Shown here: in pieces, positions 1,658 through 20,766 of the stretch
Numbering within the stretch: the first letter of the stretch is position 1
How the letters are laid out: each line of letters opens with the position of its first letter
Virus record (IMG/VR): IMGVR_UViG_2600254997_000022
Length of the DNA stretch: 20,766 nucleotides
Direction: 5' to 3' (one strand)
Source of the DNA: a virus
Taxonomy: Duplodnaviria; Heunggongvirae; Uroviricota; Caudoviricetes
Notes under the pieces: model-generated
The model's input: only the letters and a program-made list of their open reading frames with translations
Database searches by the model: none
Told to the model about the DNA's origin: nothing
Position numbers and translations under genes: made by a program

Positions 1658-1843
1658 ATGCGCCTTATCAAATTAAGCGAAGTCATGCTCAGAACGGGCT
1701 TCAAGAAAACGGCAATCTACTCATGGGTTAAGACGGGCACGTTTCCACAGCCAGTTAAAATTGGTAGATCAGCTAGATGGTCGCTTGAGGAGGTTGAAGC
1801 TTGGATCCAGAATAAACTTGATTCGCGGGCTGGCAACCAATGA
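1658..1843 (+). CDS. AlpA-family phage regulatory protein / excisionase-type HTH (61 aa)
   Basis: MRLIKLSEVMLRTGFKKTAIYSWVKTGTFPQPVKIGRSARWSLEEVEAWI is the classic AlpA/HTH_17 pattern. GGAG lies 7 nt upstream of the ATG. Confidence 0.85.
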   Translation: MRLIKLSEVMLRTGFKKTAIYSWVKTGTFPQPVKIGRSARWSLEEVEAWIQNKLDSRAGNQ

Positions 1844-2890: not shown

Positions 2891-2906
2891 GCCCGGCGTA
2901 CCGGGC
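2891..2906. terminator. GC-rich hairpin just downstream of the lipoprotein gene
   Basis: gcccgg-cgta-ccgggc, a 6-bp stem with a tetraloop, lies 8 nt past the stop at 2914. The plus-strand side is T-rich (cttattagtt) and the minus-strand side is weaker (cattcatg). It may act in both directions. Confidence 0.45.
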
Positions 2907-2913
2907 TTATTAG

Positions 2914-3612: not shown

Positions 3613-3762
3613 GATAATCTCACCTAAGAATTGCGTGGTTATAAATTATCATCACTGTAAGCGAATGTAAGCCACAGGCTCGTAATGTGATATGGAATTT
3701 TTATAGTTGGCTCAATATCAGTATGCCGTCCTTGGCTATTATGGTTTTGTTAGTTAGAGCGT

Positions 3763-5918: not shown

Positions 5919-5972
5919 TGAACCGCCCCGGGAATCCTGGAGACTAAACTCCCTGAGAAAGAGGTAAACAGG

Positions 5973-6299
5973 ATGACTAAAAATACTCGTTTTTCCCCCG
6001 AAGTCCGTCAGAGGGCGATTCGTATGGTTCTGGAAAGTCAGGGCGAATATGACTCACAGTGGGCGGCAATTTGTTCCATTGCCCCAAAGATTGGCTGTAC
6101 ACCGGAGACTCTGCGTGTCTGGGTACGCCAGCATGAGCGGGATACCGGAGGCGGTGATGGCGGGCTCACCACCGCTGAACGTCAGCGTCTGAAAGAGCTG
6201 GAACGTGAAAATCGTGAACTGCGCCGCAGTAACGATATCCTTCGCCAGGCTTCCGCTTATTTTGCGAAGGCGGAGTTCGACCGCCTCTGGAAAAAGTGA
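5973..6299 (+). CDS. IS629 OrfA (108 aa, HTH)
   Basis: ORF track. The stop overlaps the orfB ATG (TGATG), and GGAAAAAG just upstream sits where IS3-family -1 frameshifting occurs. Confidence 0.92.
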
Positions 6300-7187
6300 T
6301 GCCACTGCTGGATAAGCTGCGTAAGCTGTACGGGGTCGGACCGGTATGCAGTGAACTACATATTGCCCCGTCAACGTATTACCACTGTCAGCAACAGCGA
6401 CATCATCCTGATAAACGCAGTGCCCGTGCGCAGCGCGATGACTGGCTGAAGAAAGAGATACTGCGCGTATACGATGGGAATCATCAGGTATACGGTGTGC
6501 GTAAAGTCTGGAGTCAGTTGTTACGGGAAGGAATCAGGGTAGCCAGATGTACAGTGGCGCGCCTCATGGCGGTTATGGGACTTGCCGGTGTTCTCCGGGG
6601 TAAAAAGGTCCGTACGACCATCAGCCGGAAAGCCGTTGCCGCAGGCGACCGCGTAAACCGTCAGTTCGTGGCAGAACGACCTGACCAGCTGTGGGTGGCT
6701 GATTTTACTTACGTCAGCACATGGCAGGGCTTCGTCTATGTGGCGTTCATCATTGATGTGTTTGCCGGATACATTGTGGGGTGGCGGGTCTCGATCGTCC
6801 ATGGAGACGACATTCGTGCTGGATGCACTGGAGCAGGCGTTATGGGCCCGTCGACCGTCCGGCACGGTCCATCACAGTGATAAAGGTTCTCAGTATGTAT
6901 CGCTGGCCTACACACAGCGGCTTAAGGAAGCCGGATTACTGGCATCAACAGGAAGTACAGGCGACTCGTATGACAACGCGATGGCGGAGAGCATCAATGG
7001 TCTTTACAAAGCGGAGGTAATACACCGTAAGAGCTGGAAAAACCGTGCAGAAGTGGAACTGGCCACACTCACGTGGGTGGACTGGTATAACAATCGACGA
7101 TTGCTGGAAAGGCTGGGCCATACTCCTCCGGCAGAAGCAGAAAAAGCTTATTATGCTTCCATCGGAAACGATGATCTGGCAGCCTGA
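6296..7187 (+). pseudogene. IS629 OrfB transposase (DDE), split by a frameshift
   Basis: Two overlapping ORFs (6296-6880 and 6738-7187) each carry transposase sequence: ...GYIVGWRVS in one frame, then SSMETTFVLDALEQALW... in the next. The switch is near 6790-6800 (gtctcgAtcgtcc). As I recall, intact IS629 OrfB is a single ~296-aa ORF. Confidence 0.75.
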
Positions 7188-7229
7188 GTTCACAGATAAA
7201 ACACTCTCCAGGAAACCCGGGGCGGTTCA

Positions 7230-7804
7230 GTTGGTAGTCCTGCTTCTATGTTCTTAAATTGCTGACGTTTTGCTTCCCATGCAGAAATATCTCCCACCTG
7301 AGAGATTTCTTTATCAAGCTCTGAGTAGTCAGGCTGCTGAAGATTGCGATGTTGACTGGTTTGTGCAAACTGCAAGATTTCACTGTCATCAGGGATTATT
7401 CCGGCATCTGCAAATTTACTTACGTAATTAGCCGTTTCATCTGGCAGTGTAGATTTACCGTTTCTGACGGCATTAATACGAGCATAGCCAGAATTATACC
7501 CAGCCAATGCCATACCAATATCACCAAATCGCTTCATTCCTTTATTGAGATGGTTTGCTGCGATATCCATTTGCTTTTCAAATGGCAGTGAGCGCGGATC
7601 AGTTCCACGATAACCAGCATCACTCATTACTGAGGGCATCAGTTGAGCAAATCCTCTAGCTCCTTTCGGTGACTCGGCACTTCCGTTACCACTAGATTCA
7701 TTGCCAACTAATGTTTCCATCGTCCCTGATGGGAAACCATATTTTTCATCGAGATGACGGGAATAGGCTTTCTGTTTTTCTGTCAGTTGTGCCATCATTG
7801 CCAT
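7230..7804 (-). pseudogene. N-terminal fragment of the large ejection/internal-virion protein: SLT lytic transglycosylase domain
   Basis: Family-1 lytic transglycosylase motifs: catalytic E-S (GNESSGN), GARGFAQLMP, and AGYNSGY. The annotated 204-aa ORF (7190-7804) ends with 13 residues (from the junction codon) read from the IS629 end (..TEPPRVSWRVFYL). Confidence 0.85.
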
Positions 7805-9114
7805 CCCTTAAGTTTTGCCTGATAGTAACTTTCCGGCAGATAGCCATGTGCGGTCACATAATCCTTAACCAGTGAAGGATCCTGCAACAGCATTTTGGTA
7901 TCAGTTTCTTCGTCCTTTGATTTGGTTACAGGAATACCGAGCCCGGCAATCTGTCGTTTCTGCATTCGAATAATTACGTCCTGCGCTTTATTCAACTCTC
8001 GCAAAAATGCCTCATTGCTGGTTGCTGACTTAATGCCATTTTGAGATTGCATAAGGGCAGCCCTTTCCCCTTCGGTTGGGTTAGAGCCAAAAGTCCCTTT
8101 GAGGCTAGGCAGAATAACCTTTAGGTTGTATTCATCAGCTTTGGCGCGTAGGCTTCGTGTGTCTTCTGCTACATCAGGAAGGAATCCAAACCCCAGCGTC
8201 AGGGGGTTATAGTTCTGCGAGCGGGTAACGGCCGAAGGATGTTTCCCTACAATTCCCGCCAGTTCATGACCCACTTCAAGCGCAGAGTTCAAGGAGTCGA
8301 TGTTACCTGCAACAGTATTAATTTTATCGTTCATCTTCTCCACTTTCGCCTGCTGTACTTTGCTCAGTTCAGCATTGAGCTTGTCTCTCTCGATGTCATT
8401 TTGAGCACGTCCAAGTCGTGCTTTCAGAACCATTTCTCTCGTGCGTAGTTGGTTATCGGATAGGACTTTGAACTGCTCCATATCGAGACGCCGATTACCC
8501 AGTTCCGCATTAACCTGAGCATTATATGCAGATGTATCTGCGTTCTGCTGTGCAATGCTCTGCCCTTGCTGCTTCTCTTGAACACTAAAGTAACTATTTG
8601 GATCAGCATGGAGGTGGATGAGGTCAGTGATTCTGTTGAATTCCTGTGGGTCATTCTGCCAAGACTGATAAACCTCTTCAGCAGGAAGACCAAATCGCTG
8701 TAATACTGGATTTGCCTGCTGAATGGCCTTCTGCATGGTCAGTGGATCTCCAGTTTGTGACGCAAGACGCAGATTCATGGCAGCGTCAGCGGTCTGTCGA
8801 TTTTGCTCAGCATCAATGAATCCCATCTGTTTTTGAGAATCAGCCATAAACTGGGGATACTGGGCCATTAACTTCTGCACGCCAACACGATCATTATTAG
8901 CTACCGCACTACCCAACCGTGCCTGATATTCTTTTAGCTGCTGGGAAATTTGCGCCTGCTGATTAATCTCAGCAACGCCTCTTAGCCCCTGTAGCGCCAT
9001 TAAACCTACGTTTGGCTGCTGCTGATACTGCACAGGCTGAGGAACGGAAGAACGAGGAGCATTATCATTTTGCGGTGCCATGCTAGGCAGCCCGCCAAGT
9101 TGCCATGTCGCCAT
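7795..9114 (-). CDS. Ejection / DNA-transfer-like protein (439 aa), in the P22 gp20 position
   Basis: Q/N/A-rich with predicted coiled-coil character. The start overlaps the upstream stop (TAATG) and the stop overlaps the downstream start by 10 nt. Size and position parallel P22 gp20 (~470 aa). Homology was not verified. Confidence 0.6.
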   Translation of the reverse strand: MATWQLGGLPSMAPQNDNAPRSSVPQPVQYQQQPNVGLMALQGLRGVAEINQQAQISQQLKEYQARLGSAVANNDRVGVQKLMAQYPQFMADSQKQMGFIDAEQNRQTADAAMNLRLASQTGDPLTMQKAIQQANPVLQRFGLPAEEVYQSWQNDPQEFNRITDLIHLHADPNSYFSVQEKQQGQSIAQQNADTSAYNAQVNAELGNRRLDMEQFKVLSDNQLRTREMVLKARLGRAQNDIERDKLNAELSKVQQAKVEKMNDKINTVAGNIDSLNSALEVGHELAGIVGKHPSAVTRSQNYNPLTLGFGFLPDVAEDTRSLRAKADEYNLKVILPSLKGTFGSNPTEGERAALMQSQNGIKSATSNEAFLRELNKAQDVIIRMQKRQIAGLGIPVTKSKDEETDTKMLLQDPSLVKDYVTAHGYLPESYYQAKLKGWQ

Positions 9115-9791
9115 TAGAATCCAAGCCCCCCAACAAGACCAATAAGCCCACCACCAATAGCCCCGGCGACATTACCTATACCCGGAACAACGGAACCAAG
9201 TTGCGCACCCGCTAAAGCGCCTGATGCCGCCCCACCAATACCACGCGCAAGACTGGATGGCTGCTGCGCCTGACCTGCACGAATAGCGCCAAGCCCCTGC
9301 AAGAGTTGTCCGGTATTATTGGCGTAGTTTTGCCCTGCTGTTGCCTGCCCTGATGCCGCATTCATCCCGACATTTAGCAGGTTTCCATAATTTTGCATTT
9401 GCCCACTGAGCCAATTGTTATAAAGCATGGGCGCAATGGAAGATAACTGGTTACTGGTAGCTGTTGAGCCAAGCCCCCCGGTAGCTTCTGCTGAGACAAG
9501 GTTCTGATAACGGGCCTGATCTGCCTGTGTTTTATATAAACCAGAACCAAAGAAATCATTCGCGGCTTTATTCTGCCCTTCCAGAGTCATCAGTCCTTGT
9601 AGTTGTTGTAAAGCAGGCAATCCGACTTCTGCATACGGCTTGAGATTATTCATCACCGTATTCCACTGCTCGCGCTGCAAATCAATTGCCTGCTGCTGGG
9701 CCTTCGCCTGAGCTTTAGAGGCACCACCATCACCGCCTTTTTCGTATACGGCACGATTGAGATATTTATGAGCTATATGGGTAATTAACAT
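9114..9791 (-). CDS. Ejection / DNA-transfer-like protein (225 aa), in the P22 gp7 position
   Basis: Q/G/A/N-rich, with a C-terminal glycine-zipper hydrophobic tail (GIGGAASGALAGAQLGSVVPGIGNVAGAIGGGLIGLVGGLGF). Size parallels P22 gp7 (~229 aa). Translationally coupled on both sides. Confidence 0.6.
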   Translation of the reverse strand: MLITHIAHKYLNRAVYEKGGDGGASKAQAKAQQQAIDLQREQWNTVMNNLKPYAEVGLPALQQLQGLMTLEGQNKAANDFFGSGLYKTQADQARYQNLVSAEATGGLGSTATSNQLSSIAPMLYNNWLSGQMQNYGNLLNVGMNAASGQATAGQNYANNTGQLLQGLGAIRAGQAQQPSSLARGIGGAASGALAGAQLGSVVPGIGNVAGAIGGGLIGLVGGLGF

Positions 9792-10246
9792 TCGCTGAAT
9801 TCCTTATATTGTTGCCGAGTTAACTGATAAAGCATTACGCCGACGGGTTTACCACATCTGATATAAGCATCATCAAGGTGACCAACACGGGTAGCGCCAA
9901 GCAAACGGATAATTGCCCGTCCGTATTTGGTGGTGTCAGGAACCATGGTAATGCTGTTAAGGAATGGTGAGTTTTCGAGAAGCCATTTGCAGAATAATCG
10001 ATGCCCTTGCAGTGCATATTCACCACGGAATCCGGGGTCGTACACCGCATGGCATTCAACAATGTTATGCCAGAAGTTACGCACTTCATGAACGCCAGCC
10101 AGCACCAATCCTTCGTAGATACCGAGATATACCGCATCAGGCTTGATGTAGTACGTGTGCCCCGGCTCAACAATATTTTCGGTATTGCCAGGCTCGTTAA
10201 GAAAGGCCTGTAATCGCACAGGGTTATCAATAAATTTTAGTTCCAT
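9785..10246 (-). CDS. 153-aa protein in the P22 gp14 position, with a weak GNAT-like motif
   Basis: ORF track. First large gene of the coupled block. DPGFRGEYALQGHRLFCKWLLE loosely resembles acetyltransferase motif A. Size parallels P22 gp14 (~160 aa). Function is uncertain. Confidence 0.5.
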   Translation of the reverse strand: MELKFIDNPVRLQAFLNEPGNTENIVEPGHTYYIKPDAVYLGIYEGLVLAGVHEVRNFWHNIVECHAVYDPGFRGEYALQGHRLFCKWLLENSPFLNSITMVPDTTKYGRAIIRLLGATRVGHLDDAYIRCGKPVGVMLYQLTRQQYKEFSEC

Positions 10247-10262
10247 GCGATGCCATCCATTT

Positions 10263-10424
10263 TCACATACAGCCTGCCAGCGCCTTATCTATTAACCCTC
10301 GTGCAATTTCATGCAGAGTTGGCGCTACTCCAATTCCTGATTTTTTACGCTGCTCTTCCTGAATTTTCTTTATCGCTTCCATTTGCTTCTCACTTATCAA
10401 TACCGGCTTTACTGAAATAGCCAT
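10263..10424 (-). CDS. Ribbon-helix-helix (Arc/CopG-like) small DNA-binding protein, 53 aa; below the ORF-track cutoff
   Basis: The reverse strand reads MAISVKPVLISEKQMEAIKKIQEEQRKKSGIGVAPTLHEIARGLIDKALAGCM. AGGGGG RBS lies 5 nt upstream. The beta-strand/helix/helix spacing is typical of RHH proteins. The stop is 17 nt before the next ATG. Confidence 0.65.
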   Translation of the reverse strand: MAISVKPVLISEKQMEAIKKIQEEQRKKSGIGVAPTLHEIARGLIDKALAGCM

Positions 10425-10439
10425 AACGCCCCCTTAGAA

Positions 10440-10463
10440 CTGTATAAAACAACAGTTATTATA
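10440..10463 (-). promoter_or_regulatory. TATAAT -10 element followed immediately by a perfect LexA box
   Basis: The reverse strand reads ATGAAT-N17-TATAAT-AA-CTGTTGTTTTATACAG. The CTGT-N8-ACAG core is at 10440-10455 and the -10 at 10458-10463. The box covers the predicted transcription start, 15 nt upstream of the RHH start codon. Confidence 0.7.
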
Positions 10464-10517
10464 GTTTCATAAATCGCAACATTCATCATCGTAATTGCAA
10501 AATATGAAACATATAGC

Positions 10518-10552
10518 ACAAAAAAATGCCACCGCTCAGTAGCTGGTGGCAT
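10518..10552 (-). terminator. Strong intrinsic terminator for leftward transcription from the primase/ori side
   Basis: Stem atgccacc (10526-10533) / ggtggcat (10545-10552) with an 11-nt loop. On the reverse strand it is followed by T7. It separates the replication module from the SOS-boxed operon. Confidence 0.8.
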
Positions 10553-10872
10553 CGTTCTGTGTGTCAGGTTTTGACAGGTTTTTTATGGACTCTAAAAACT
10601 ATATTTATGGTGTCGCATTACTCTTCACGGCAGGCGCTTTTCAGTTCTGCCCTTGCTTCTGGCTCCATTGGTAATTTGATTCGCGATCAGCTATGCGGAT
10701 GGTTTGCTGAACAGGCATAACAACTTCTCAAGGGCTGTTTTCTGAACTACGAAAATTTCGTAGTGCTCACTTTCAAAAACGTCACGCCCTTGTACACAGG
10801 ATTTTACGAAAGTCTCGTAAAACACTCTCTGATGCCAGCCAGGTGTTGTGCGCATCAATTCAGTCACATTGT

Positions 10873-10974
10873 GTTGGTTCAAAATACCGTGTTGTTGGTT
10901 CAGTGTTGGTTCAATAAAAAGAATAAAATCCTTATAAAACAATACCCTTTATAAATTGAACCAACTGAACCAAC
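10873..10974. repeat. Iteron cluster B (ori/crr-like), immediately downstream of the primase-helicase gene
   Basis: GTTGGTTCA at 10873, 10894 and 10905 (21- and 11-bp spacing). An AT-rich spacer follows, then TGAACCAAC in tandem at 10957 and 10966. The reverse complement aligns with cluster A, including the spacer (atttataaagggtattgtttt vs atttgtaaagagtattgtttt). Confidence 0.8.
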
Positions 10975-10999
10975 ACCTTTTCTACGCACATGAAGAAGC

Positions 11000-13759
11000 T
11001 CATTCTTCAGATGAGTTGTAATCTCCTGGCTGGTAATTGAGTACATAAACGTTTATTTGTCGTCCCTGAATACGTGGTGATTTTCTTTGGTATCCACGAC
11101 CGCTGTTTGGTGGGGTTAGCATCCCGGCTTTTTTCAACACTTCAGCAAACTGTTTTGCGTTGAAACCACATGCGATCTCCTTTTCAAATGTGGCCGGGAA
11201 TGTGTAGAAAATCATTGGGCTTTCGTCATGTTCTCCACGCTGACGGTATCCGGCTAAATCTTTGATGGGCAAATCTGCCGGGCTGTATGGAAATGGTGCA
11301 AAACGGCTAAGCCCATAGGCATTAAGAAATGCCTCCGTTTGTTCAATAATCTGCTGATGTTCTTTGTTACCTGTGCCGAACTCGCGCAACCATGCGTTAT
11401 AGCTGTGCTGTATCGCATCACGGCATGTCTGAGCATCCCAGCCTGTTACAACCTCGCCTAACAGCAATGCGGCCTCCAGAATGGCAAATCGCGCGGCTAC
11501 ACGGTGAACCTGCTCACCATAATCGGATGGGATCAGACTTCTCCATCTGCTTTCGCGGTCACGAACAGTTTTAATTGCCTGTTGCTGGTGGTCTGCCAGC
11601 CATTTAATCCACTCACGCCCGGCTGCGCCGTGGTGATGCTGGTAAGCGTCTTTCAGTGCGTCTGCGTGCTGTTTTCCGTTCTGGTAATCGTGAAAGCGTA
11701 CTGCTTTACTCAACGGAATATTCAGCAGTCGCACCAGTTGCCCGGCTTTGGTTTTTCGCCCGGAAGTAGCGATAAATGTTTCTAAATCCATTTCTCCGGT
11801 GCTGATTGCCACTGTACGCCAGCGTTTTAGATCCCGGTTTCCACCATCTTTAGCGCCTTGCAGTTTCCCTACACCGTTAAATAACGCATAGGCAGACTGT
11901 GAAACACTGACAGGATCAGCGCCCTGACCAACTTCATCAAGCGGCATTAGTCCGTCATTGTGGGCGGCAGCTTCATTTGCCAGCCCCAGCGCGGTTCCGT
12001 ACCACGTCAGCCGCAGTAAATCAGGGTTGCCGTATAAGCTGCTCGCCACGTTTGCCGTGGTGGTCTTACCTGCGCTCGACTGCTCATAGAAATGAATGCC
12101 GAACCCGTCAGCGCCCACCAGCCCAATCAATGGCGCTGCCAGTGCTGCGCCGATCCCGGTCATCATTGAATAGTTACCAAAGGCCAGACGCGCCACGTTA
12201 TCACGCCAGCTTTTCGCGCTCCCTGAGACGGTATATCCGGCTGCGGCTGAGCTTCTCCCGCTGAACAGCACAGGATTTTCAGGTGTTCCGATGATTTCCC
12301 CATCAGGCATGATGTACGCTCCGCATTGCCAGCCAGTGGCATGAGCAACACGCCACAATTCACGAGAGCCACTGCGTTGTAGCCAGTCTGCCAGTATTGC
12401 TCTGAGGCTGCTTTTGGTCGTGACATTTACCCCACCAGCTTTAAGTGTGCGCCATCCTTCACGTTCACCAATATCAGCCAGTGGAATGGCAGCGGTTGTC
12501 GGCGTTTCAGAACCAAACGACAGCCAGCGAAGAATGAGATACTGGTCTTTATCGTCTCTGCCAGTACCGATAACGCTTAACGGAGAACATAACCAGCTTT
12601 CGTTATTGATGATTTCTCCACTCTGGCTGTCAGCTCTCGGAGATACCCAATAAATACCATCCTCGCGGCTTTCTATTCTTGGTTTCAGTGGGTCGGTATC
12701 CATAACCTTAAAATCGCTTCCCTCAATGGTCTGTGGCTCCTGTTTCACGCCATTACCCTGTGGTTGGTACATTGACTTATTGAACGCTTCTGTGGCGCAT
12801 TTAATGCCGTGTTTTTGGTGGTAATCATTCCAGTCTGCTTTGTGATCTGTCGGGGGTAATGCCACCCATCCAGAAACAGATAAAGCTGCTTTTTCTGCTG
12901 CTCTTCTCCCCGTGTTTTGTCTTCCTTCGCTGTGGTCGTTATCCGCAGCAATGATGATTTGTGCTGAAGGAAATTTATCCCGCAGTACCTGGGCGACATA
13001 TAACAGGTTCCCGGCATCAATCGCCGCCACTGTCAGCGCCTCTGGGCGAATTAAATGGGCAGATAATGCCGTTGCCAGCCCTTCTGCGATTAAGATGCTC
13101 TGTGTTGTTTCTGGTGCGTTTATGGCGTGATATGCCCCTCGCTTTGCTGAACCTGTCAGGAGTCTTTTTTCACCATGTGAGGTAATAGTCTGTGCTGCTG
13201 TGACTGCGCCGGATTTATCCACCAGCGCCAGCAACAGAGATCCATCGGGCAACACGGGGAATGTAAAATCACCTACCCCTTTCGCAACCAGATAATCAGA
13301 TTTGCCGTTTACAGCCTTTCTGCGCATGTCATCAAACTGACGGGAAAACGTATCCCGTCTTTGTTGTTCGTCCTTCTCTGCCCTTTTCAGGCGCTCCTGT
13401 TCGCGTCGCTGGCGCTTGGTTTCCAGTTGTTCCCGTTTCTGGCTGGTGGCTTCTGGTGTTTCCGTTGTCCGGTAATCAATACCCAGAACATCAGCGGCAA
13501 GAAGCGCCGCCTCTGTTGTGTCGCAGTTATTTACGCGTTTAATTAAATCCAGCCCATCACCAGCGCCGCACTGATTACAGATGAAGCTACCGCGCCCGTT
13601 GTCATCGAACCGGAATCGATCTTTTCCCCCACATGCAGGGCAGGGAGCATGACGGCGCGGAGAGTCAGGGACATTTATGTTCAGGCAGCCCAGCACATGA
13701 GGCCAGTTGTTTTCAGACGCACTGATAACCTGACGGATAAGATCAATGTTTCGCATCAC
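11000..13759 (-). CDS. Primase-helicase, P4 alpha-like (919 aa)
   Basis: N-terminal zinc ribbon CPACGGKDRFRF..FICNQCG. TOPRIM-like acidic motifs (ILIAEGLATALS, IIIAADNDHSE). Walker A in YEQSSAGKTTTANV. The long C-terminal region fits an origin-binding domain. Confidence 0.9.
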   Translation of the reverse strand: MMRNIDLIRQVISASENNWPHVLGCLNINVPDSPRRHAPCPACGGKDRFRFDDNGRGSFICNQCGAGDGLDLIKRVNNCDTTEAALLAADVLGIDYRTTETPEATSQKREQLETKRQRREQERLKRAEKDEQQRRDTFSRQFDDMRRKAVNGKSDYLVAKGVGDFTFPVLPDGSLLLALVDKSGAVTAAQTITSHGEKRLLTGSAKRGAYHAINAPETTQSILIAEGLATALSAHLIRPEALTVAAIDAGNLLYVAQVLRDKFPSAQIIIAADNDHSEGRQNTGRRAAEKAALSVSGWVALPPTDHKADWNDYHQKHGIKCATEAFNKSMYQPQGNGVKQEPQTIEGSDFKVMDTDPLKPRIESREDGIYWVSPRADSQSGEIINNESWLCSPLSVIGTGRDDKDQYLILRWLSFGSETPTTAAIPLADIGEREGWRTLKAGGVNVTTKSSLRAILADWLQRSGSRELWRVAHATGWQCGAYIMPDGEIIGTPENPVLFSGRSSAAAGYTVSGSAKSWRDNVARLAFGNYSMMTGIGAALAAPLIGLVGADGFGIHFYEQSSAGKTTTANVASSLYGNPDLLRLTWYGTALGLANEAAAHNDGLMPLDEVGQGADPVSVSQSAYALFNGVGKLQGAKDGGNRDLKRWRTVAISTGEMDLETFIATSGRKTKAGQLVRLLNIPLSKAVRFHDYQNGKQHADALKDAYQHHHGAAGREWIKWLADHQQQAIKTVRDRESRWRSLIPSDYGEQVHRVAARFAILEAALLLGEVVTGWDAQTCRDAIQHSYNAWLREFGTGNKEHQQIIEQTEAFLNAYGLSRFAPFPYSPADLPIKDLAGYRQRGEHDESPMIFYTFPATFEKEIACGFNAKQFAEVLKKAGMLTPPNSGRGYQRKSPRIQGRQINVYVLNYQPGDYNSSEE

Positions 13760-14114
13760 CGTACCCCACGTGGTCTATAGCGTTTGCGATATGGCTAACC
13801 AGCATCTGCCACTTGGTTATTCCGTAATCAGTCAGCATGCCATCATTGTTTAGCCACATATCAAATTCAGCGGTTGTCGCAAGTTTCCACTGATCGCCGT
13901 GGACAGTTCTCATTGCTGGGTACATGAATGCGCAAATCAGATCACAAACATCTGACGGCTTCAGAGATGTAGTAATGGTGCGTCCCTCTGGCGTCTGAAT
14001 TGCCATTTTCTCTTCACCAGTAGAATGAAGGTTATGAATCCACACAGCACCAGCAATCTTTGCCACCTGCTCTCCGATTGCGGAGCTAAGCGCCATTTCT
14101 GCATTTTCACGCAT
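13743..14114 (-). CDS. Hypothetical protein (123 aa)
   Basis: GGGAGG RBS 6 nt upstream. Overlaps the primase start by 17 nt and the upstream stop by 8 nt. Confidence 0.65.
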   Translation of the reverse strand: MRENAEMALSSAIGEQVAKIAGAVWIHNLHSTGEEKMAIQTPEGRTITTSLKPSDVCDLICAFMYPAMRTVHGDQWKLATTAEFDMWLNNDGMLTDYGITKWQMLVSHIANAIDHVGYGDAKH

Positions 14115-14448
14115 GAGAACCTCCCGCTACAGTTGCGCCCATGTCATTAACCATGCTTTGCCATATCTCACGCCCGACGTCAGTCAATCCGTCCTTATTG
14201 ACGCAACGCTCAAGAAGCTCGATCCCCACGGTTTCCCACTGCGGGTAGAACACTTTCATGGCTGCCAGTGTGTAGCTATCGATCAGGCTGCGAACGCCTT
14301 TTACTCCATTGACGATTTCCACACGTACGGCCTTGCCGTCCGCATCAACCATGAAATAGTCCCCGTCGCTGGTGGAGGTAATGTGGTTATACAGTGCCGA
14401 CGCATACTTATTTGCCAGCGCATTCAGTCGGAAATTTTTAGTAATCAT
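14107..14448 (-). CDS. Hypothetical protein (113 aa)
   Basis: ORF track. GGATGGAG RBS. Coupled to the downstream gene. Confidence 0.65.
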   Translation of the reverse strand: MITKNFRLNALANKYASALYNHITSTSDGDYFMVDADGKAVRVEIVNGVKGVRSLIDSYTLAAMKVFYPQWETVGIELLERCVNKDGLTDVGREIWQSMVNDMGATVAGGSHA

Positions 14449-14458
14449 GGCTCCATCC

Positions 14459-15061
14459 TCAGTGCGTCACTGGTTCCGCTGGCATGCCGTTTTCATTCAG
14501 TTCAGCTATAAAGCTGTTGTGAAGTTCAGCAAGCGTTTCACGACCAAATGGAGTCAGTGCTCCTTGTTCCACATCCATCATGGCTCTGTAGAAAATGATG
14601 GCGCGTTCTGTGCCAGACTCGATGCCAAAACGTTCTATCATCGCGCCCTCAATGTTGTTTGCCATAGCGAGACGCTCTGCTACTGGATACAGCGGCATGG
14701 CGACGATGCCGTTGGAATAAACAGCCACTTCGGAAGGATTGCCAGTATCATCAATGATGCTGACAGTGCCGTTTTCCTCTCTCATTTCCAGCATGAATAC
14801 TGTTGCGATCAGCCATCTCCACATAATGACGTTATGCTGTGATGTGTAATCGAAATATCCCTGGTTGCCGCCATCGGCAATAGCGAGATGTATTGACATA
14901 CCTTCATCTGGTTTATCGTCATAATCCCCGGCATCCAGACGATTTACGGCATCAATATATGAGACGGCCTCAACGCGTTCTGTCATGCCATCGTTGCTGC
15001 GGTACATGATGTTTACGCCGTCAGGCGTTGCTTCTGCATGGAACGTTAAGAAATTATTCAT
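14459..15061 (-). CDS. Hypothetical protein (200 aa from MNNFLTFHAE; the track ORF extends to 15166)
   Basis: The ATG at 15061 overlaps the stop of the upstream ORF (ATGAATAA). The longer N-terminal extension would overlap that ORF by more than 100 nt. Confidence 0.6.
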   Translation of the reverse strand: MNNFLTFHAEATPDGVNIMYRSNDGMTERVEAVSYIDAVNRLDAGDYDDKPDEGMSIHLAIADGGNQGYFDYTSQHNVIMWRWLIATVFMLEMREENGTVSIIDDTGNPSEVAVYSNGIVAMPLYPVAERLAMANNIEGAMIERFGIESGTERAIIFYRAMMDVEQGALTPFGRETLAELHNSFIAELNENGMPAEPVTH

Positions 15062-15275
15062 GTTTCGCCTCGCCTGAATGATTCTGTAACTCATATTTGC
15101 CCAACAATTCGTCCGCTTCCTGAATAGCTTCTGGTACGCCATTGAGCAGTGACATAACCGCGCCAATCATTAACTTGTCTCTGTTGCTGGGGCTGGCCCC
15201 TTCAAGCCAGAACCCTAAAACAGTCTGAACCTGTTCGATGCGACATTGCGCTTCGATGAGCTGGATGTTGGTCAT
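15054..15275 (-). CDS. Hypothetical small protein (73 aa)
   Basis: ORF track. Start and stop overlap both neighbours. Confidence 0.55.
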   Translation of the reverse strand: MTNIQLIEAQCRIEQVQTVLGFWLEGASPSNRDKLMIGAVMSLLNGVPEAIQEADELLGKYELQNHSGEAKHE

Positions 15276-15535
15276 TTCGCACTCTCCGCATCGATTAAAC
15301 TGATATCTATCAGAGAGGTAACTTTTTGTAGCCAGCTAGTGATTACTGTCGCCTGTTCCCCTCCCACCGATGGAAGAATCTCATTCATCACATGAACCAG
15401 ACCTGTGCGCGCTCTGGTAAGCCGTTCAGTCGTGCGATCTGCAAGAGTGAATGTGTCTGGATATGGCTCTTCACGGCTCAGCAATGATTCAATTTCCAGC
15501 TCACACGGATGACGATAAATTAAGTTGATATTCAT
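15272..15535 (-). CDS. Hypothetical small protein (87 aa)
   Basis: ORF track. 4-nt overlaps with both neighbours. Confidence 0.55.
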   Translation of the reverse strand: MNINLIYRHPCELEIESLLSREEPYPDTFTLADRTTERLTRARTGLVHVMNEILPSVGGEQATVITSWLQKVTSLIDISLIDAESAK

Positions 15536-15726
15536 TTTTCACCCCCAAGAATTACCAGCTCTGCACGGGCATCGTTAACCAAAGATGAGCACGCTTTAAT
15601 CGCATCCACGACATCAACAGCGTCCATTTCTTCAGCCGAAAGATTGACAGCAACCAGGACAGCCGCTGCTTGCTCGATTAATTGAAGTGCGGACGTAAGT
15701 CGATGGGCATTAATTGAGTTATTCAT
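15532..15726 (-). CDS. Hypothetical small protein (64 aa from MNNSINAH)
   Basis: GGGGG RBS upstream of the ATG at 15726. The longer form to 15783 would overlap the upstream gene. Confidence 0.5.
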   Translation of the reverse strand: MNNSINAHRLTSALQLIEQAAAVLVAVNLSAEEMDAVDVVDAIKACSSLVNDARAELVILGGEK

Positions 15727-15937
15727 TGGTTGCCCCCGTTTTTCCTGGCATTTCGCCACCTTCCAGCAGGAAATGAACGTCACGAACGGCGAGATCCAAT
15801 ATCGCGAGTAACGCCTTCAGTCTTTCGTCTCGTGAGGGAGAGTTGCTCACCAGAATGTCGTTAATCACTTCTGTCAGTGTGATGATCTGGCTTGTGCGTT
15901 CGAGGGGATCCATATGCACATCGTAGGTTTTAATCAT
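15719..15937 (-). CDS. Hypothetical small protein (72 aa, MIKTYDVHMDP...)
   Basis: GGAGGTGG RBS. The ATG overlaps the stop of the Icd-like ORF (ATGATTAA). The 210-aa track ORF 15719-16351 is an upstream read-through of this frame across the structured leader. Confidence 0.55.
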   Translation of the reverse strand: MIKTYDVHMDPLERTSQIITLTEVINDILVSNSPSRDERLKALLAILDLAVRDVHFLLEGGEMPGKTGATNE

Positions 15938-16124
15938 GTGCCACCTCCATGCGGATACGACCAGCAAAAAAGCAGACGTGATCGCGCACCAGAGAACGGC
16001 GAGCATCGCGTTCAGACTCGGCAGCAATATGATGAATTTTGGCGGTAATTGTCGGGTAATCGCGGCGAACTGCGGCGATAATCCAGATAAATTGCGGTTT
16101 TTGGGTAGTGGTAGTAGCCAGCAT
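15930..16124 (-). CDS. Possible Icd-like (host cell division inhibitor family) small protein, 64 aa
   Basis: AAGGAGG RBS 7 nt upstream. FIWIIAAVRR...ESERDARRSL...CFFAGRI resembles what I recall of P1 Icd-like proteins. Sits directly behind a c4-like structured leader. Confidence 0.45.
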   Translation of the reverse strand: MLATTTTQKPQFIWIIAAVRRDYPTITAKIHHIAAESERDARRSLVRDHVCFFAGRIRMEVAHD

Positions 16125-16143
16125 GTGGCAGCCTCCTTGTACT

Positions 16144-16261
16144 GGGAATTCTTCCCACCACCGGAGCTGCGAAACTCGCTGGTGGTGGACTGAACAGAGT
16201 TCGCAGTACCGGCGTACAAGGAAACCGGCCAGCCTTTCGGCTGCCCTGTCCAGCCCACCAT
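16144..16261 (-). ncRNA. Candidate c4 / CI-type antisense (immunity) RNA or cis leader
   Basis: Dense stems on the reverse strand: CAGCC-GAAA-GGCTG, GTAC-GCCG-GTAC, CCACCACC...GGTGGTGG, CTGCGAA...TTCGCAG. Two segments are complementary to the contiguous RBS region GTACAAGGAGGCTGCC of the downstream ORF: GGCAGCC (+ coordinates 16239-16245) and TCCTTGTAC (+ coordinates 16214-16222). Confidence 0.5.
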
Positions 16262-16281
16262 AATTTTACAAGCGACGCGGA

Positions 16282-16788
16282 TTATAACCACATCACCGAA
16301 AAAAGTGTGAGTCTGGCTAACGGCACAGAAAAAGACGCTCGGCGCGTCCATGTGTCGCCTCGTACATTTCCGGGCTTGCGAAACCCGGCACCCGTTTTAT
16401 GAGGTGCCTTATAACCATAAACCGTGTTGCCGCATAACGGCAAGCTCTTTTTTATGGACTCCGAAAACTCACTATTGGAAGAACCAGAAGCACAGTACAT
16501 CGCGCTCATTTCGTTAACGTCACGCGCGTAGACGAATGTTTTTGTGGAGTCACTACACGAGCAGAACAGGTGATCTACGACCAGAAATTCTCTGGCGCAG
16601 CCGCTGACCTTCTCAACGCTAACACCATCGACCGTAATTTCTGACATAGTTAAGGCATCCGCTCCTACCACCAGCAAATGATAAACTTTGCTTGTATCTG
16701 CTATATTAATGTCTGACTTTGCTGTCATATTGCTGGATTTTGGCGACATACCAGCCAGTGAAAATATCTTCTTCTGGGCGGTTAGCAT
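16282..16788 (-). CDS. Hypothetical protein (168 aa)
   Basis: GGAGG RBS 9 nt upstream. The ATG overlaps the upstream stop (ATGCTAA). The C-terminal ~40 aa look low-complexity, so the true end is uncertain. Confidence 0.5.
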
Positions 16789-16964
16789 TTGTTAACCTCC
16801 GTGAACTCCTTCATGAAACGTGCCAGCGGTTGTACGCATGGCGATTGATACCCGTCGCGATAAAACGTCACTCGGTTGTGAGACACGCTTTCGACAGTAA
16901 CGAGTGCTCCGTGGGCATCTTTGTAGCGTTTTTGGGGTTGTGGTGTTCCTGTCGGTTTAAACAT
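16782..16964 (-). CDS. Small protein (60 aa from MFKPTGTPQ), possibly DUF4222-like
   Basis: GGAGG RBS. The ATG overlaps the antirepressor stop (ATGTTTAA). The KRYKDAHGALVTVESVSHNRVTFYRDGYQSPCVQP pattern recalls DUF4222 phage proteins, from memory. Confidence 0.5.
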   Translation of the reverse strand: MFKPTGTPQPQKRYKDAHGALVTVESVSHNRVTFYRDGYQSPCVQPLARFMKEFTEVNKC

Positions 16965-17790
16965 GGACCGCCTCCAGACGCTTGGCGAGCCAGCGTTGCG
17001 ACAGGCGGGTGAGTTCTCCTTTGCGCTGCTCATATTCCATGCCCATATCAATTAACGTGATATTGGTGCTTTCGAGATATGAGAGGTGCTCAAGCTGTTC
17101 TGCGTTCATATGGTCGCGAGGTTCGCCAGAATAGCCATTTATCCGCGCCCACTGCTTGGCAGTTAGCCCACCAAGAACGATACGAGAAATCATATTGCTC
17201 TCGTTTGTGTAGTGGTGTTGCTGCGTCGTTTTCCCCTGCTCGGCACGGGCCATATTCAGCGCATCGCACATTGGCTTAAAGTTGTTTGCGGCACTGATAC
17301 GGGCTTTTAGCTGGCGACGATAGCGGGCGGCGATTTCAGGCACGGTACGCTGTAATTCTTCCTCGCACTGGATGAAATAACGGCGGATAGCGCGACCCTG
17401 ATCATTGCGTTCGATCATTGCCAGTTCTTTCGCCATTCCGACACTTAACAGATAGTCTTTGCCGGGTCTGCCAGACTGCTTAATCTTGCTGTAAGCCGCG
17501 CCATTCGGGCTTTTCCCCAAATTTGGGGAAATTGTTTTATGGACTGAGTAATCGTGCCCAATGGTGAAGTCATATTCAGAGATGCGATCAGTGATCCATG
17601 TAGAGAAGTCTTTTCCCACGCCCAACGCTTTGTGTAACGCTTTTGCGCTAACAATATTGGTTTCACGCCCACCGATATGACCAGGAATAACCGGGACAAT
17701 TGCGGCAAATTCATTACCGTTAATTGTGCCCAGAGAGGCGTTCAGATGAGGGGCAGCCTCAGAAATTAATCTGCTTTTTTCGATGTTCAT
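16957..17790 (-). CDS. Phage antirepressor, AntA N-terminal domain plus KilAC (ANT) C-terminal domain (277 aa)
   Basis: VSAKALHKALGVGKDFSTWITDRISEYDFTIGHDY is AntA-like. GRPGKDYLLSVGMAKELAMIERNDQGRAIRRYFI is the KilAC/ANT signature. Confidence 0.8.
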   Translation of the reverse strand: MNIEKSRLISEAAPHLNASLGTINGNEFAAIVPVIPGHIGGRETNIVSAKALHKALGVGKDFSTWITDRISEYDFTIGHDYSVHKTISPNLGKSPNGAAYSKIKQSGRPGKDYLLSVGMAKELAMIERNDQGRAIRRYFIQCEEELQRTVPEIAARYRRQLKARISAANNFKPMCDALNMARAEQGKTTQQHHYTNESNMISRIVLGGLTAKQWARINGYSGEPRDHMNAEQLEHLSYLESTNITLIDMGMEYEQRKGELTRLSQRWLAKRLEAVHV

Positions 17791-17802
17791 TTTCAGTCTC
17801 CG

Positions 17803-18234
17803 TTAGGCGGCGTTAAACGCGTCCGGGTAGAGTTTCAGAATGTCGGCAATTTCCTGCTGAGAAAGTCCGTTGTGATCATTTATGTTCGCAAGATGGTTAA
17901 CATGAGTGATCACTTTCAGAACATCACCACGGCAGGAGAAACGGTAGCGAAGGTGTGTTCCGATACCATCAGGATTCTTTTCGTCGATACGCTCCAGAGT
18001 GATTCCAAGCTGGCGTTCTAACTCTGTTGCATAGTTACGACCAGATGACAGACGGCAGTAGCGAAGAATGTCATTTTCTGTCCATCCCTCTATACCAGTA
18101 CGCAGCATATAGACTCTGGCACGATGCTTTTTCGGTGTGCGCTTTGGTGCTTGAAGGGATTTTGTAAGGGGCGTAACATCAGATACGCGAATATCTGAAT
18201 TAGCCGCCTGTAATGGGCGGTTTTTCTTTTCCAT
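17803..18234 (-). CDS. Hypothetical protein (143 aa)
   Basis: ORF track. The start overlaps the alpA stop (TGATG). Basic N-terminus (KRTPKKHRAR). No motif recognised. Confidence 0.6.
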   Translation of the reverse strand: MEKKNRPLQAANSDIRVSDVTPLTKSLQAPKRTPKKHRARVYMLRTGIEGWTENDILRYCRLSSGRNYATELERQLGITLERIDEKNPDGIGTHLRYRFSCRGDVLKVITHVNHLANINDHNGLSQQEIADILKLYPDAFNAA

Positions 18235-18437
18235 CAGGCCACCTTCCCGCGGCGTTCTGCCAGCCAGTTGTGAATCTCAACCGCATCAAACGCAGTTATT
18301 TTTTCTCCCAGCTTTACCGGACGTGGTAGTGAACCGTTTCTTACTTTACGGTCGATGGTGGATACACTAACGCCCAGCAATTCAGCCAGGCGAAAGCGTC
18401 TGATATAGCCTTTTGTAGGGATAGTGTCGATGTTCAT
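18234..18437 (-). CDS. alpA: AlpA-family transcriptional regulator / excisionase-type HTH (67 aa)
   Basis: YIRRFRLAELLGVSVSTIDRKVRNGSLPRPVKLGEKITAFDAVEIHNWL matches the AlpA/HTH_17 pattern. Typical position near a P4-family integrase. Confidence 0.85.
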   Translation of the reverse strand: MNIDTIPTKGYIRRFRLAELLGVSVSTIDRKVRNGSLPRPVKLGEKITAFDAVEIHNWLAERRGKVA

Positions 18438-18504
18438 GATTCCCGTAACCTCTTAGCGATAGTTGTTGCTTCGTTACGAGAAATCTAGCTGTATAGATAT
18501 ACAA

Positions 18505-18532
18505 TGAAAAGGTACTGTAATTTTGCAGTACC
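18505..18532 (-). terminator. Intrinsic terminator after the int-orf316 unit
   Basis: Stem ggtactg (18511-18517) / cagtacc (18526-18532) with an 8-nt loop. On the reverse strand it is followed by TTTTC. Lies 12 nt past the stop at 18544. Confidence 0.7.
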
Positions 18533-18543
18533 TCTATAGTAAG

Positions 18544-19494
18544 TTAACTATCCACTTTGCCATTTGCCGCAGATCGTAGATGTTTAAGAATTACATCTTC
18601 ATTAGTTATCATAAGTGGTGGAACTTCGTCTAAATGACGAACAAGACAGTCACGCCACTTCTCAGGGCTTATTTCTTTCCTTTCTCCCCTGCATTCATTT
18701 GGATACTTACTAAGTATATAAATTGCAGATTTTAATAGTTTCTCCCTATTGACTGCGTACCGTTCGGCACGTTTATTAACTTTTAGCGTATTTATATCAT
18801 TGGATAACTTGTTTGCGGATGGTTTGTGCATGGGTCTGTCATAAATATATTTTCCTCCATTTATAAGAAGATTGTATTCATAGTCAGTTATATACATTTT
18901 GTTTCGGCTTATTTCATACCAGCCGTCAATATAAAAAGCTCCGATTTCATAATTATTCGATTTGCTAAACTCGTCACATCTCGGAGGCATCAGTTCGCAT
19001 ACAGAGATCTCCCAATCATCCCATTCTGATAGCTCCCGCTCATCGTTATCTATGAACGCAGGCGGAATTGCTAATAGACCGCTCCATCTTTCGATATCTC
19101 TTTCATCCTTCCCAACATTATATCGCTCTATAACTGAGAAATGTTCTGATTTGTATGAAAACCTCATAAAATACATATAGTTATCGCTATTTTTATAATC
19201 AGGTGATGATAAGCCATATGATTCGAGATTATCTGCCTTATTGCTCAGATCAAGGAGATAATTCTCATGTGCTGCTTTTGTATCTATATGAAAAATACTA
19301 TCTGTTTCAACTTTAAGTAATTCTGGCTCGGCATCTTCATTTTTTGGGTAATGGTAAAACAATTCAATAGGTGGAATTTTTATACATATTTCTAAAACCC
19401 CAATTGCTGCATAGTGTATTAAATCGGATACTTCACATCCGGCCAGTTTGGCTGCTTTATCCAAAGAATAATATTTATGCGCAGGTAATTTCAT
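18544..19494 (-). CDS. AT-rich orphan protein (316 aa) with an HTH-like N-terminus; function unknown
   Basis: GAGGAAAT RBS. The start is 18 nt after the int stop with no terminator between them. YSLDKAAKLAGCEVSDLIHYAAIGVLE looks like an HTH. No catalytic motif recognised. Markedly AT-richer by eye than int and alpA. Confidence 0.8.
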   Translation of the reverse strand: MKLPAHKYYSLDKAAKLAGCEVSDLIHYAAIGVLEICIKIPPIELFYHYPKNEDAEPELLKVETDSIFHIDTKAAHENYLLDLSNKADNLESYGLSSPDYKNSDNYMYFMRFSYKSEHFSVIERYNVGKDERDIERWSGLLAIPPAFIDNDERELSEWDDWEISVCELMPPRCDEFSKSNNYEIGAFYIDGWYEISRNKMYITDYEYNLLINGGKYIYDRPMHKPSANKLSNDINTLKVNKRAERYAVNREKLLKSAIYILSKYPNECRGERKEISPEKWRDCLVRHLDEVPPLMITNEDVILKHLRSAANGKVDS

Positions 19495-19512
19495 TATGAA
19501 TATTTCCTCTCA

Positions 19513-20766
19513 TCATGCTCTGATTGGCGTTACGTTGTAGTCTTTTCCGCTTTCCAGTGCCACCAGCAGATCTGCCCACTGTGCCAGTGCTGCTTTACGC
19601 TCATCAAAATACTGATGACGGTTATAAATCCCCTCTACGCCCTTAATGCGATGATTGAGGCATCGTTCCGCCACGACAGGATCAACACCCAATGCTGCTA
19701 AATGAGTACGTGCGGTGCGTCGGAAGTCGTGAATCGTGAAATTAGGCACATCCGGCATTTCGGCGCGAACCTTAGCCAGTGCTACGGGTAAAGTGCTTTC
19801 CTGAATATGTGGGATCATTCTGTTTTGCATCTTCCTGGCCGGAAGCACCCATGCGCTATTACATGAAAAGGTGTGTAGCTCTCTCAACCATTCAACGGCT
19901 GGGGAAGGTAGAGGTATATCAATAGGGTCTCCGTTTTTGCTGCGTTCTTCCGGCAAATGCCATACCGCACCATCTAAATCAAACTCTTCCCATCGTGCGG
20001 CGCATAACTCCATCTTACGAACGCATAGTGCCAGCAATAGTTTAAATGTCAGTTCGTTTTGGCGGCTGAATCCTTTTGCGGTGCGCATAGCCTCGAATAG
20101 CCTGATAAGCTCATCGCGAGTTAGCCAACGGTCGCGGGAAACCTCTTTACCACCAGCATCAGATACTTCAAACGCTGAACAAGGGTTTATCTCCAGAGCG
20201 TGGCGTTTTATCCCATAGTCAAAGATACGGCGTGTCCAGCGTAATACATCTGTTGCTATCGTTGGTGCTCCTCGGTCAACGATACCTTTCAACATGTCGT
20301 CAATGTGGCGTGGCTTAACGTCCTCTACCTTCATATGCCCAATGCAGGGGTTAATATCCTTATCAATTCTCCGGCGAAGGATATCGGGATGTTTCCATCT
20401 CGGAAGTATCTGGCGCTCGAAGTATTCGGAGGCCAGATCTGAAACACGCATGGCGTTTTTCTCAGCCTCCATTTTTGCCAGTGCTTCAGCTTTTCGTTCC
20501 TGTTTCTCTGCTGCTACGTCATAGCCAAGAGCAACTCTGGCTGACAGCTCTTTCGCTGTTTCTCTGGCTTTTGATAGTGACAGTTCGGAGTAAGAGCCTA
20601 TAACCATAGCCCGCTGCTTTCCTGCGAGCTTATAGCGGAATCGCCAGAACGGGACTGTGTAGTTTTTGGGGTAGCAAATATAAAGGCCGTTGCCGTCTGC
20701 CTTGCCATCAAATCTGTCTCCCGCCTTTATCCATGCGCGGATCTGCATATCTGTGAGTTTTGGCAT
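19513..20766 (-). CDS. Tyrosine recombinase / integrase, P4 (CP4-57/IntS-like) family (417 aa)
   Basis: N-terminal MPKLTDMQIRAWIKAGDRF..GNGLYI is DUF4102-type. The catalytic region contains HDFRRTARTHL and LNHRIKGVEGIYNRHQY. The ATG is the last three bases of the window. Confidence 0.93.
   Translation of the reverse strand: MPKLTDMQIRAWIKAGDRFDGKADGNGLYICYPKNYTVPFWRFRYKLAGKQRAMVIGSYSELSLSKARETAKELSARVALGYDVAAEKQERKAEALAKMEAEKNAMRVSDLASEYFERQILPRWKHPDILRRRIDKDINPCIGHMKVEDVKPRHIDDMLKGIVDRGAPTIATDVLRWTRRIFDYGIKRHALEINPCSAFEVSDAGGKEVSRDRWLTRDELIRLFEAMRTAKGFSRQNELTFKLLLALCVRKMELCAARWEEFDLDGAVWHLPEERSKNGDPIDIPLPSPAVEWLRELHTFSCNSAWVLPARKMQNRMIPHIQESTLPVALAKVRAEMPDVPNFTIHDFRRTARTHLAALGVDPVVAERCLNHRIKGVEGIYNRHQYFDERKAALAQWADLLVALESGKDYNVTPIRA

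Follow-up and report, generated by a model that had tools for sequence, protein, structure and literature searches.

In P1 and P4, immunity depends on a small antisense RNA, c4 in the former and CI RNA in the latter. The RNA is excised by RNase P and pairs in trans, so that transcription of a leader terminates through the targets a1 and b1, translation of icd or kil is blocked through a2 and b2, and Rho-dependent termination takes place. This picture is owed to Citron & Schuster (1990), Hartmann et al. (1995), Sabbattini et al. (1995), Forti et al. (1999), and Briani et al. (2000), the last two of which also provide the details of the P4 elements t1, t4, and timm. A module of the same type is present in a viral DNA of 20,766 nt (IMG/VR record IMGVR_UViG_2600254997_000022, Caudoviricetes). 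This whole stretch of DNA was analyzed and is referred to below as the window. On its minus strand lies a C4/CI-type antisense RNA (C4 RNA) in a layout like that of P4. With a probability of about 0.85, it is the immunity RNA of a phage-inducible chromosomal island (PICI) that resembles EcCIMP1.

There are a number of published accounts of related systems. Weinberg et al. (2010; PMC2864571) described the C4 family, and IsrK and C4 have been equated with P4 seqA and the P4 CI RNA, respectively (PMC3632133, PMC4825925). In Salmonella Gifsy-1, the short IsrK RNA reportedly activates translation of the antirepressor gene anrP, and the authors of that study likened their two RNAs to P4 seqA and CI (PMC4825925). 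Matches to C4 and isrK have also been reported inside the Phage_ASH “Bro” genes of Gram-negative PICIs, together with the eta/kil logic (PMC10111431). Phage Kapi1 mobilizes EcCIMP1, a PICI found in E. coli MP1 (PMC11773190). The terms “antisense” and “sRNA” are absent from that last paper, and the RNA genes of EcCIMP1 are apparently not discussed in it.

The system found in the window is already known, as its RNA family is curated in Rfam and both the equivalence with P4 and the matches in Gram-negative PICIs have been published. A preliminary description, made from the letters of the window alone, had called a c4/CI-like RNA at this place, and its recognition from raw sequence was confirmed by a standard covariance model. 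The remaining points are small ones. They are a covarying alternative helix, a TATAAT box that is kept only in the PICI sub-lineage, an icd start that is out of frame, and RefSeq records that list no noncoding RNA (ncRNA).

The C4 RNA and its relatives

The Rfam model of C4 antisense RNA (RF01695, gathering score 45) matches 16178-16265 of the minus strand with 81.1 bits (E = 8e-15), and the match extends over model positions 1-87 of 87. All of the strings quoted in the preliminary description occur on the minus strand at the coordinates given there. Elsewhere, RF01695 identifies the P4 CI RNA (8420-8507, 74.9 bits) and the c4 of a P1-like phage (75.9 bits), the latter match adjoining an annotated icd. 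The C4 segments of EcCIMP1 and E. coli ABU 83972 each score 81.1 bits, equal to that of the window. Upstream of the C4 RNA, a second Rfam model, RF01394 (isrK, gathering score 50), matches 16328-16407(-) with 57.4 bits. The same model gives 60.8 bits with the P4 leader at 8615-8692, just upstream of the CI RNA. A search of reference genomes with the Rfam models found the tandem of C4 and isrK in SfV, a Stx1 phage, and E. coli ABU 83972 as well. Since P4, SfV, the Stx1 phage, and ABU 83972 all have this tandem, the module is assigned to the known IsrK-C4 immunity system.

The C4 RNA has a long acceptor-like closing stem, a hairpin 1 with a GAAA loop (CAGCC-GAAA-GGCUG), a hairpin 2, a single-stranded junction, and an ACCA-like 3' tail. 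The GAAA hairpin had been pointed out in the preliminary description. The loop of hairpin 2 is 10 nt long here and 12 nt long in the Rfam consensus. An RNA of 83 nt folds with -45.7 kcal/mol (z = -4.75), and its minimum-energy structure is the Rfam structure. RNAalifold recovered the three-way junction from 34 diverse sequences, including those of P4 and the P1-like phage, with compensatory changes in 19 of the 27 pairs. Hairpin 2 is barely informative in this alignment, as it had been preset by the search pattern in 32 of the 34 sequences. Of the features relevant to RNase P, the sequence displays only an acceptor-like stem and a 3' tail resembling ACCA.

The resemblance to the immunity region of P4 (P_LE, seqA leader with t1, CI RNA, seqC, nested kil and eta, alpha primase operon) is extensive. 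The same two Rfam models are found in the same order and orientation, with C4 corresponding to the CI RNA and isrK to the seqA leader. In both, a1 lies in the loop of the second leader hairpin, a2 and b2 are downstream with b2 on the ribosome-binding site (RBS), the first open reading frame (ORF) is a Kil homologue of about 65 aa, and a primase operon follows. Unlike in P4, the element a' is CUGCGAA here (UUCUCAC in P4), and b' ends in UUGUAC (UGUGAA in P4). The immI region of P1 and P7 (a1 b1, c4, a2 b2, icd, ant) has in common with the window the RNA family, the logic of a' and b', the position of b2 on the RBS of icd, and an Icd-like first ORF. It differs in that an antirepressor is gated there, whereas small ORFs and a primase would be gated here and the AntA/AntB gene (16957-17790) is upstream of the C4 module. 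The order of icd followed by an antirepressor, typical of P1, was not found in the window, and no isrK match at the gathering score of RF01394 was obtained in the P1-like phage. In Gifsy-1 (IsrK, STnc1160, orf45, anrP), an RNA of the isrK family that carries its own terminator is likewise followed by a complementary, processed, stable RNA. This system is unlike the window in the reported activation of anrP by IsrK and in its downstream cargo, and the island of the window is known from sequence alone.

Pairing elements and their targets

The C4 RNA (88 nt) and the leader (73 nt) share four complementary stretches of at least 7 nt, a number that was reached in 0 of 2000 dinucleotide shuffles. 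A single complement of 9 nt was reached in 42 of the 2000. The pairing of b' with b2 is 9 nt long in the window and covers the AAGGA of the Shine-Dalgarno sequence. The pairing of a' with a2 is 7 nt long, and a2 is about 25 nt upstream of the RBS. Owing to an inserted A, the upstream target a1 has 6 nt, one fewer than its counterparts in ABU 83972 and EcCIMP1. Coordinates of these elements are given in Table 1.

The conservation of these pairings was explored in viral contigs. A pattern scan yielded 120 loci, of which 73 unique loci were left after removal of duplicates and of three matches that were not C4. These loci are related to one another and carry 25 types of a' (the junction) and 26 types of b' (the loop). 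A match of at least 7 nt between a' and a2 is present in 66 of the 73 loci when the locus is compared with its own target and in 1.7% of the comparisons with targets of other loci. For a' and a1 the values are 67/73 and 1.5%, for b' and b2 59/73 and 3.5%, and for b' and b1 45/73 and 3.3%. One b' was found with five different a', each of which has a matching a1 and a2. Common descent does not account for this pattern. The pair of a' and b' can be read as an “immunity type” for each island.

The closest relative in the collection, E. coli CRE1540 (98% identity over 9.9 kb), has a different a1/b1 type in isrK (AUUGGCGU...) from that at 16350-16400 of the window. As these otherwise 98% identical islands bear different a1/b1 types, the sequences suggest that cassettes for immunity specificity may be exchanged among islands that are otherwise about 98% identical.

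The preliminary description had named two segments of the RNA, the loop of hairpin 2 and GGCAGCC, as complementary to the Shine-Dalgarno region and spacer, with which they would together pair contiguously. The strings themselves are present, namely GTACAAGGAGGCTGCC on the minus strand at 16127-16142 (RNA GUACAAGGAGGCUGCC, just 5' of the AUG at 16124), TCCTTGTAC at 16214-16222, and GGCAGCC at 16239-16245. Both segments are complementary to the target here, and the duplex of GGCAGCC with GGCUGCC alone would have -16.3 kcal/mol. The loop of hairpin 2, which is b', does pair with the Shine-Dalgarno region, and this part of the proposal stands. The second part does not. All seven bases of GGCAGCC are paired within the C4 RNA, five of them in the GAAA-capped stem of hairpin 1. 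In the 73 loci, the arm of hairpin 1 does not covary with the leader or with the sequence that follows the Shine-Dalgarno sequence, as a match of at least 7 nt was found in 12 of the 73 own comparisons and in 11.6% of the others. In addition, GGCUGCC is kept where hairpin 1 reads GCAUC or GAGCC. GGCAGCC:GGCUGCC was therefore rejected as a conserved pairing on both covariation and accessibility, and the contiguous two-segment pairing is scarcely credible. The RNA and the RBS-masking loop had been recognized correctly, and the conserved second element is a', not GGCAGCC.

A mechanism for the C4 RNA can be proposed by analogy with P1 and P4. A weak constitutive promoter would start the isrK/seqA-like leader, which carries a1, b1, and an intrinsic terminator. 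The C4 RNA would be carried on transcripts that read through or on those from a possible TATAAT promoter upstream of it. It would fold into a tRNA-like three-way junction, and RNase P would excise it, as is the case for P1 c4 and P4 CI. The a' and b' elements of the mature RNA could then act in trans. By pairing with a1 and b1 they would favor termination in the leader, and they would also pair with a2 and with b2, covering the Shine-Dalgarno sequence. Pairing at b2 would block translation of the 64-aa Icd/Kil-like ORF, and the untranslated, C-rich RNA would permit Rho-dependent termination, turning off the operon of small ORFs and primase. Thus, silencing of the replication operon would result from the block of icd/kil translation and Rho-dependent termination of the untranslated RNA. 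The role of an immunity switch, as the preliminary description had it, and an immunity phenotype are likely on the basis of homology with P4 and P1.

There is also a second helix that involves the C4 RNA. The preliminary description had listed an 8-bp stem, and CCACCACC (16181-16188) is indeed complementary to GGTGGTGG (16155-16162; RNA GGUGGUGG). This helix is outside the Rfam C4 model, and it and the closing stem of the C4 RNA are mutually exclusive. It was defined from the sequence of the window alone. In a MAFFT alignment of the loci, 88% of the cells are paired, and changes on both sides are present in eight of the nine pairs. None of 500 shuffles equaled the observed value, and slid registers gave 34-61%. 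There are 40 distinct pairs of arms, among them GCUAUCGCC/GGCGAUAGC of P4, where the layout of the alternative hairpin is the same. The location of a2 in its loop parallels that of a1 in the loop of isrK hairpin 2. The helix could represent another conformer, a way to present the target, or the atypical P4 terminator t4. It is conceivable, although doubtful, that it is a conformational switch throughout the family, of which PICIs have a version with a C4-proximal TATAAT and an Icd start outside the eta frame. If so, each transcript would switch between folding and release of C4 and display of the a2 loop for kissing with a C4 RNA from elsewhere, and the PICI sub-lineage would be a rewired P4 circuit.

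Table 1. Features of the C4 module and of the surrounding island in the window, with the evidence for each.
Feature	Coordinates	Strand	Basis
C4 RNA	16178-16265	-	RF01695; minimum-energy fold; covariation
b' (UCCUUGUAC), hairpin-2 loop, anti-Shine-Dalgarno bases	16214-16222	-	Complementarity, covariation, fold
a' (CUGCGAA), single-stranded junction, conserved second element	16200-16206	-	Complementarity, covariation, fold
a2 (UUCGCAG), downstream a' target, loop of alternative hairpin	16167-16173	-	Complementarity, covariation
b2 (GUACAAGGA), overlapping Shine-Dalgarno AAGGAGG of Icd-like ORF	16134-16142	-	Complementarity, covariation
a1 (UUCGCA), upstream a' target, loop of isrK hairpin 2	16377-16382	-	Complementarity, covariation
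b1 (GUACGAGG), upstream b' target	16358-16365	-	8 bp including one G-U; duplex -11.7 kcal/mol
GGCAGCC, last two bases of closing stem and 5' arm of hairpin 1	16239-16245	-	Fold
GGCUGCC, spacer from Shine-Dalgarno to AUG	16127-16133	-	Same in many loci regardless of hairpin-1 sequence
Alternative hairpin, CCACCACC (16181-16188, C4 3' arm)/GGUGGUGG (16155-16162), 18-nt loop with a2	16155-16188	-	Covariation
isrK/seqA-like leader: hairpin 1, hairpin 2 (a1 in loop), single-stranded b1, intrinsic terminator	16328-16407	-	RF01394
Intrinsic terminator of isrK	16328-16349	-	Terminator scan; alignment with ABU 83972 and P4
Candidate P_LE-like promoter: -35 TTGCCG (16438-16443), 18-nt spacer, -10 TATGGT (16414-16419)	16414-16443	-	Alignment (putative)
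Perfect TATAAT box between isrK terminator and C4	16281-16286	-	Alignment/conservation only
P4 eta-like ORF in two fragments (16282-16788; 15719-16351), crossing isrK and C4	15719-16788	-	Phage_ASH; alignment
64-aa Icd/Kil-like ORF, first translated gene after C4	15930-16124	-	NCBIfam NF033153
C-rich, G-poor tract (35% C, 15% G), 5' end of Icd-like ORF	16044-16121	-	Composition
Downstream operon: overlapping small ORFs, then Zn-ribbon/Toprim/DUF927 primase (11000-13759, 919 aa)	11000-15937	-	ORF list; domain scans
IS3-family element	5919-7229	+	HTH_Tnp_1 orfA; HTH_21/rve orfB; absent from EcCIMP1

Leader, promoters, and the overlapping reading frame

The terminator of isrK is read here as the equivalent of P4 t1. 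Compared with ABU 83972 and EcCIMP1, the isrK of the window has two insertions of 1 nt, an extra A at 16376-16377 in the a1 loop and an extra G at 16348-16349. RF03163 (c4-a1b1) was considered as the name of this upstream element and rejected, as its overlapping match of 18.1 bits is below the gathering score of 46.7, while isrK passes its own.

Two possible promoters were identified. The candidate P_LE-like promoter is 7 nt upstream of the 5' end of isrK and aligns column for column with the TTGCCT...TATAGT that precedes the seqA leader in P4. The perfect TATAAT box, which lacks a good -35, precedes the Rfam C4 match by about 16 nt. A consensus promoter scan listed neither of them, the P_LE-like site being too weak. 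Among 82 loci, the TATAAT is kept only in the PICI-type group, comprising the window and L001, L049, L041, L112, and L087, and it is also present in CRE1540 and EcCIMP1. P4-type and lambdoid-type loci do not have it at the equivalent place, and in this the window differs from P4 itself. From its position and conservation, the TATAAT box is possibly a C4-proximal promoter.

An eta-like ORF crosses both RNA genes. In P4, kil is reportedly nested in eta, a longer ORF that begins upstream of the promoter. As described by Forti et al. (1999) and summarized in PMC10111431, P4 eta is translated from an upstream, late promoter, so that ribosomes cross the region and immunity is overridden. In the window, Pfam PF10554 (Phage_ASH) matches residues 2-87 of the 210-aa ORF at 15719-16351 with 80 bits. 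The match, at 16091-16348(-), is made up of the codons of the isrK terminator, the C4 RNA, and the RBS. Phage_ASH lies over the RNA genes in the same way in every element checked (L005 at 8330-8521, L004, L003, and L001), with examples in the historical “cI gene product” ORF of P4, orf37 of SfV, “Ant” of the Stx1 phage, and ABU 83972. The eta-like ORF of ABU 83972 is continuous (355 aa) and is called “ash family protein” by PGAP, while that of the window is split by the two isrK insertions. One frame is free of stops over all of C4 in 72 of 77 loci, and in most of these it is also open over isrK and shares the frame of the Icd-like ATG. The 157-nt gap that the preliminary description had placed upstream of the 64-aa ORF is correct as the distance from the stop of the ORF at 16282-16788 to the ATG at 16124. 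It is not free of ORFs, as the 210-aa ORF crosses it in another frame.

These observations could mean that the conserved region encodes a protein of the Ash family, an Eta-like protein of the Bro network, and that the RNA structure is incidental. The 80-bit Phage_ASH match, the 355-aa protein named by PGAP, the stop-free frame in most loci, and the translation of P4 Eta reported from the late promoter would all be in line with this. However, a constraint on protein predicts neither the compensatory substitutions in the helices nor the covariation of the a and b elements with distant targets. The places where Phage_ASH matches are those of the RNA genes in the window, P4, SfV, the Stx1 phage, and ABU 83972, and in the window the ORF is frameshifted while C4, a2, and b2 are intact. 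A purely protein-coding region is thus very unlikely. The two are not exclusive, as what counts in P4 is that ribosomes translate eta across the region, and an eta-like read-through is compatible with the C4 immunity RNA. In this window, a bypass of the eta type may be impaired, since the eta-like frame is split and the Icd ATG is out of frame.

In RefSeq, PGAP lists at this locus a coding sequence for “ash family protein”, in many cases marked as a pseudogene, and no ncRNA (ABU 83972, CRE1540, and MP1). For this reason, the immunity RNA does not show up in the annotation of hundreds of E. coli genomes, that of EcCIMP1 included.

At 15719-16124(-), the frame of the eta-like ORF has no stop in the 64 codons that overlap the Icd-like gene in a different frame, and it continues as the frame of the small gene that follows (72 aa, ATG near 15937). 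This open frame may be due to chance or may be an overlapping read-through ORF.

Several features weigh against an immunity RNA that functions as in P4. The Icd ATG at 16124 (CACAUGCUGGCU; CAUCAUGGCU in P4) is out of the eta-like frame, whereas P4 kil is the in-frame 3' end of eta. The leader looks slightly damaged, with its two insertions, an a1 of only 6 nt, a broken eta-like ORF, and a U-run of the terminator that is interrupted by a T-to-C change with respect to ABU 83972. The P_LE-like promoter agrees with the consensus at 8 of 12 positions only. The primase is of the Toprim+DUF927 type and not of the P4 alpha type, and none of sid, delta, psu, or an alpha-type primase was found among the island ORFs scanned with Pfam and PHROG. 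Finally, the element may be partly decayed, as there is an IS3 element in the late region.

The damage raises the question of whether the module is a decaying relic, in which the RNA genes can still be recognized and the circuit no longer controls anything in the host. The insertions and the T-to-C change lower the isrK score to 57.4 bits from the 69 bits of ABU 83972 and EcCIMP1, the eta-like ORF is split, and the IS3 element interrupts a late-region gene for a lytic transglycosylase/injection protein. These signs are set against a C4 score that is the same as in ABU 83972 and in EcCIMP1, which has been mobilized experimentally, and against intact a2, b2, Icd-like ORF, and 919-aa primase ORF. 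It is therefore unlikely that the circuit is a relic, and an immunity RNA remains the favored explanation of the C4 RNA.

The gated operon and the island

The preliminary description had called the 64-aa ORF Icd-like, and this is borne out by NCBIfam NF033153 (phage_ICD_like), which gives 71.9 bits here, 76.1 bits with P4 Kil, and 49.8 bits with the Icd of the P1-like phage. The ORF is 41% identical to P4 Kil, and its homologue in CRE1540 and MP1 is named “host cell division inhibitor Icd-like protein” by PGAP. With a C/G ratio of 2.25, the C-rich tract at the start of the ORF exceeds the 99th percentile for the window, and by comparison with P4 timm it is a candidate Rho utilization site. From the 64-aa ORF to the Toprim+DUF927 primase the genes form a tightly packed operon, arranged as in P4, in agreement with what had been described. 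PHROG and Pfam scans assigned no functions to the small ORFs that separate icd from the primase.

Alignment of the window with EcCIMP1 gives 98.2-98.8% identity for 925-5918 and 7230-18244 (about 16 kb). The order of genes on the minus strand is integrase, AlpA, AntA/AntB, and DUF4222, then Ash and Icd-like, then the primase, and then DUF2824, P22-type ejection proteins, and PerC. EcCIMP1 shares the order from AlpA and AntA/B through Ash, Icd-like, and primase to DUF2824, the ejection proteins, and PerC. The window differs from it by another integrase module, an unannotated 316-aa ORF, the IS3 insertion, and the two 1-nt insertions in isrK. The IS3 element contains an ALIL frameshift pseudoknot (6254-6370, 116 bits).

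Positions 18245-20766(-) are without a match in EcCIMP1 and contain the integrase (19513-20766) and the 316-aa ORF (18544-19494), which has no match in Pfam or PHROG scans. By alignment, the island backbone is apparently joined here to a different integration module and cargo. Strain CRE1540 also has this module of integrase and 316-aa ORF, adjacent to yicC/rph.

At the far end of the island is a gene for a PerC-family activator (721-1008(-), 113 bits), as in EcCIMP1. PerC is color-coded as a virulence gene in the EcCIMP1 paper (PMC11773190).

Targeting of the helper Kapi1 by the island C4 RNA was considered as an explanation for the superinfection immunity of EcCIMP1. It was rejected, as the Kapi1 genome (MT813197) has no match to C4 or isrK and does not contain GUACAAGG on either strand. 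At 33996-34062(-), the antirepressor locus of Kapi1 itself has a sar antisense RNA of the P22 type.

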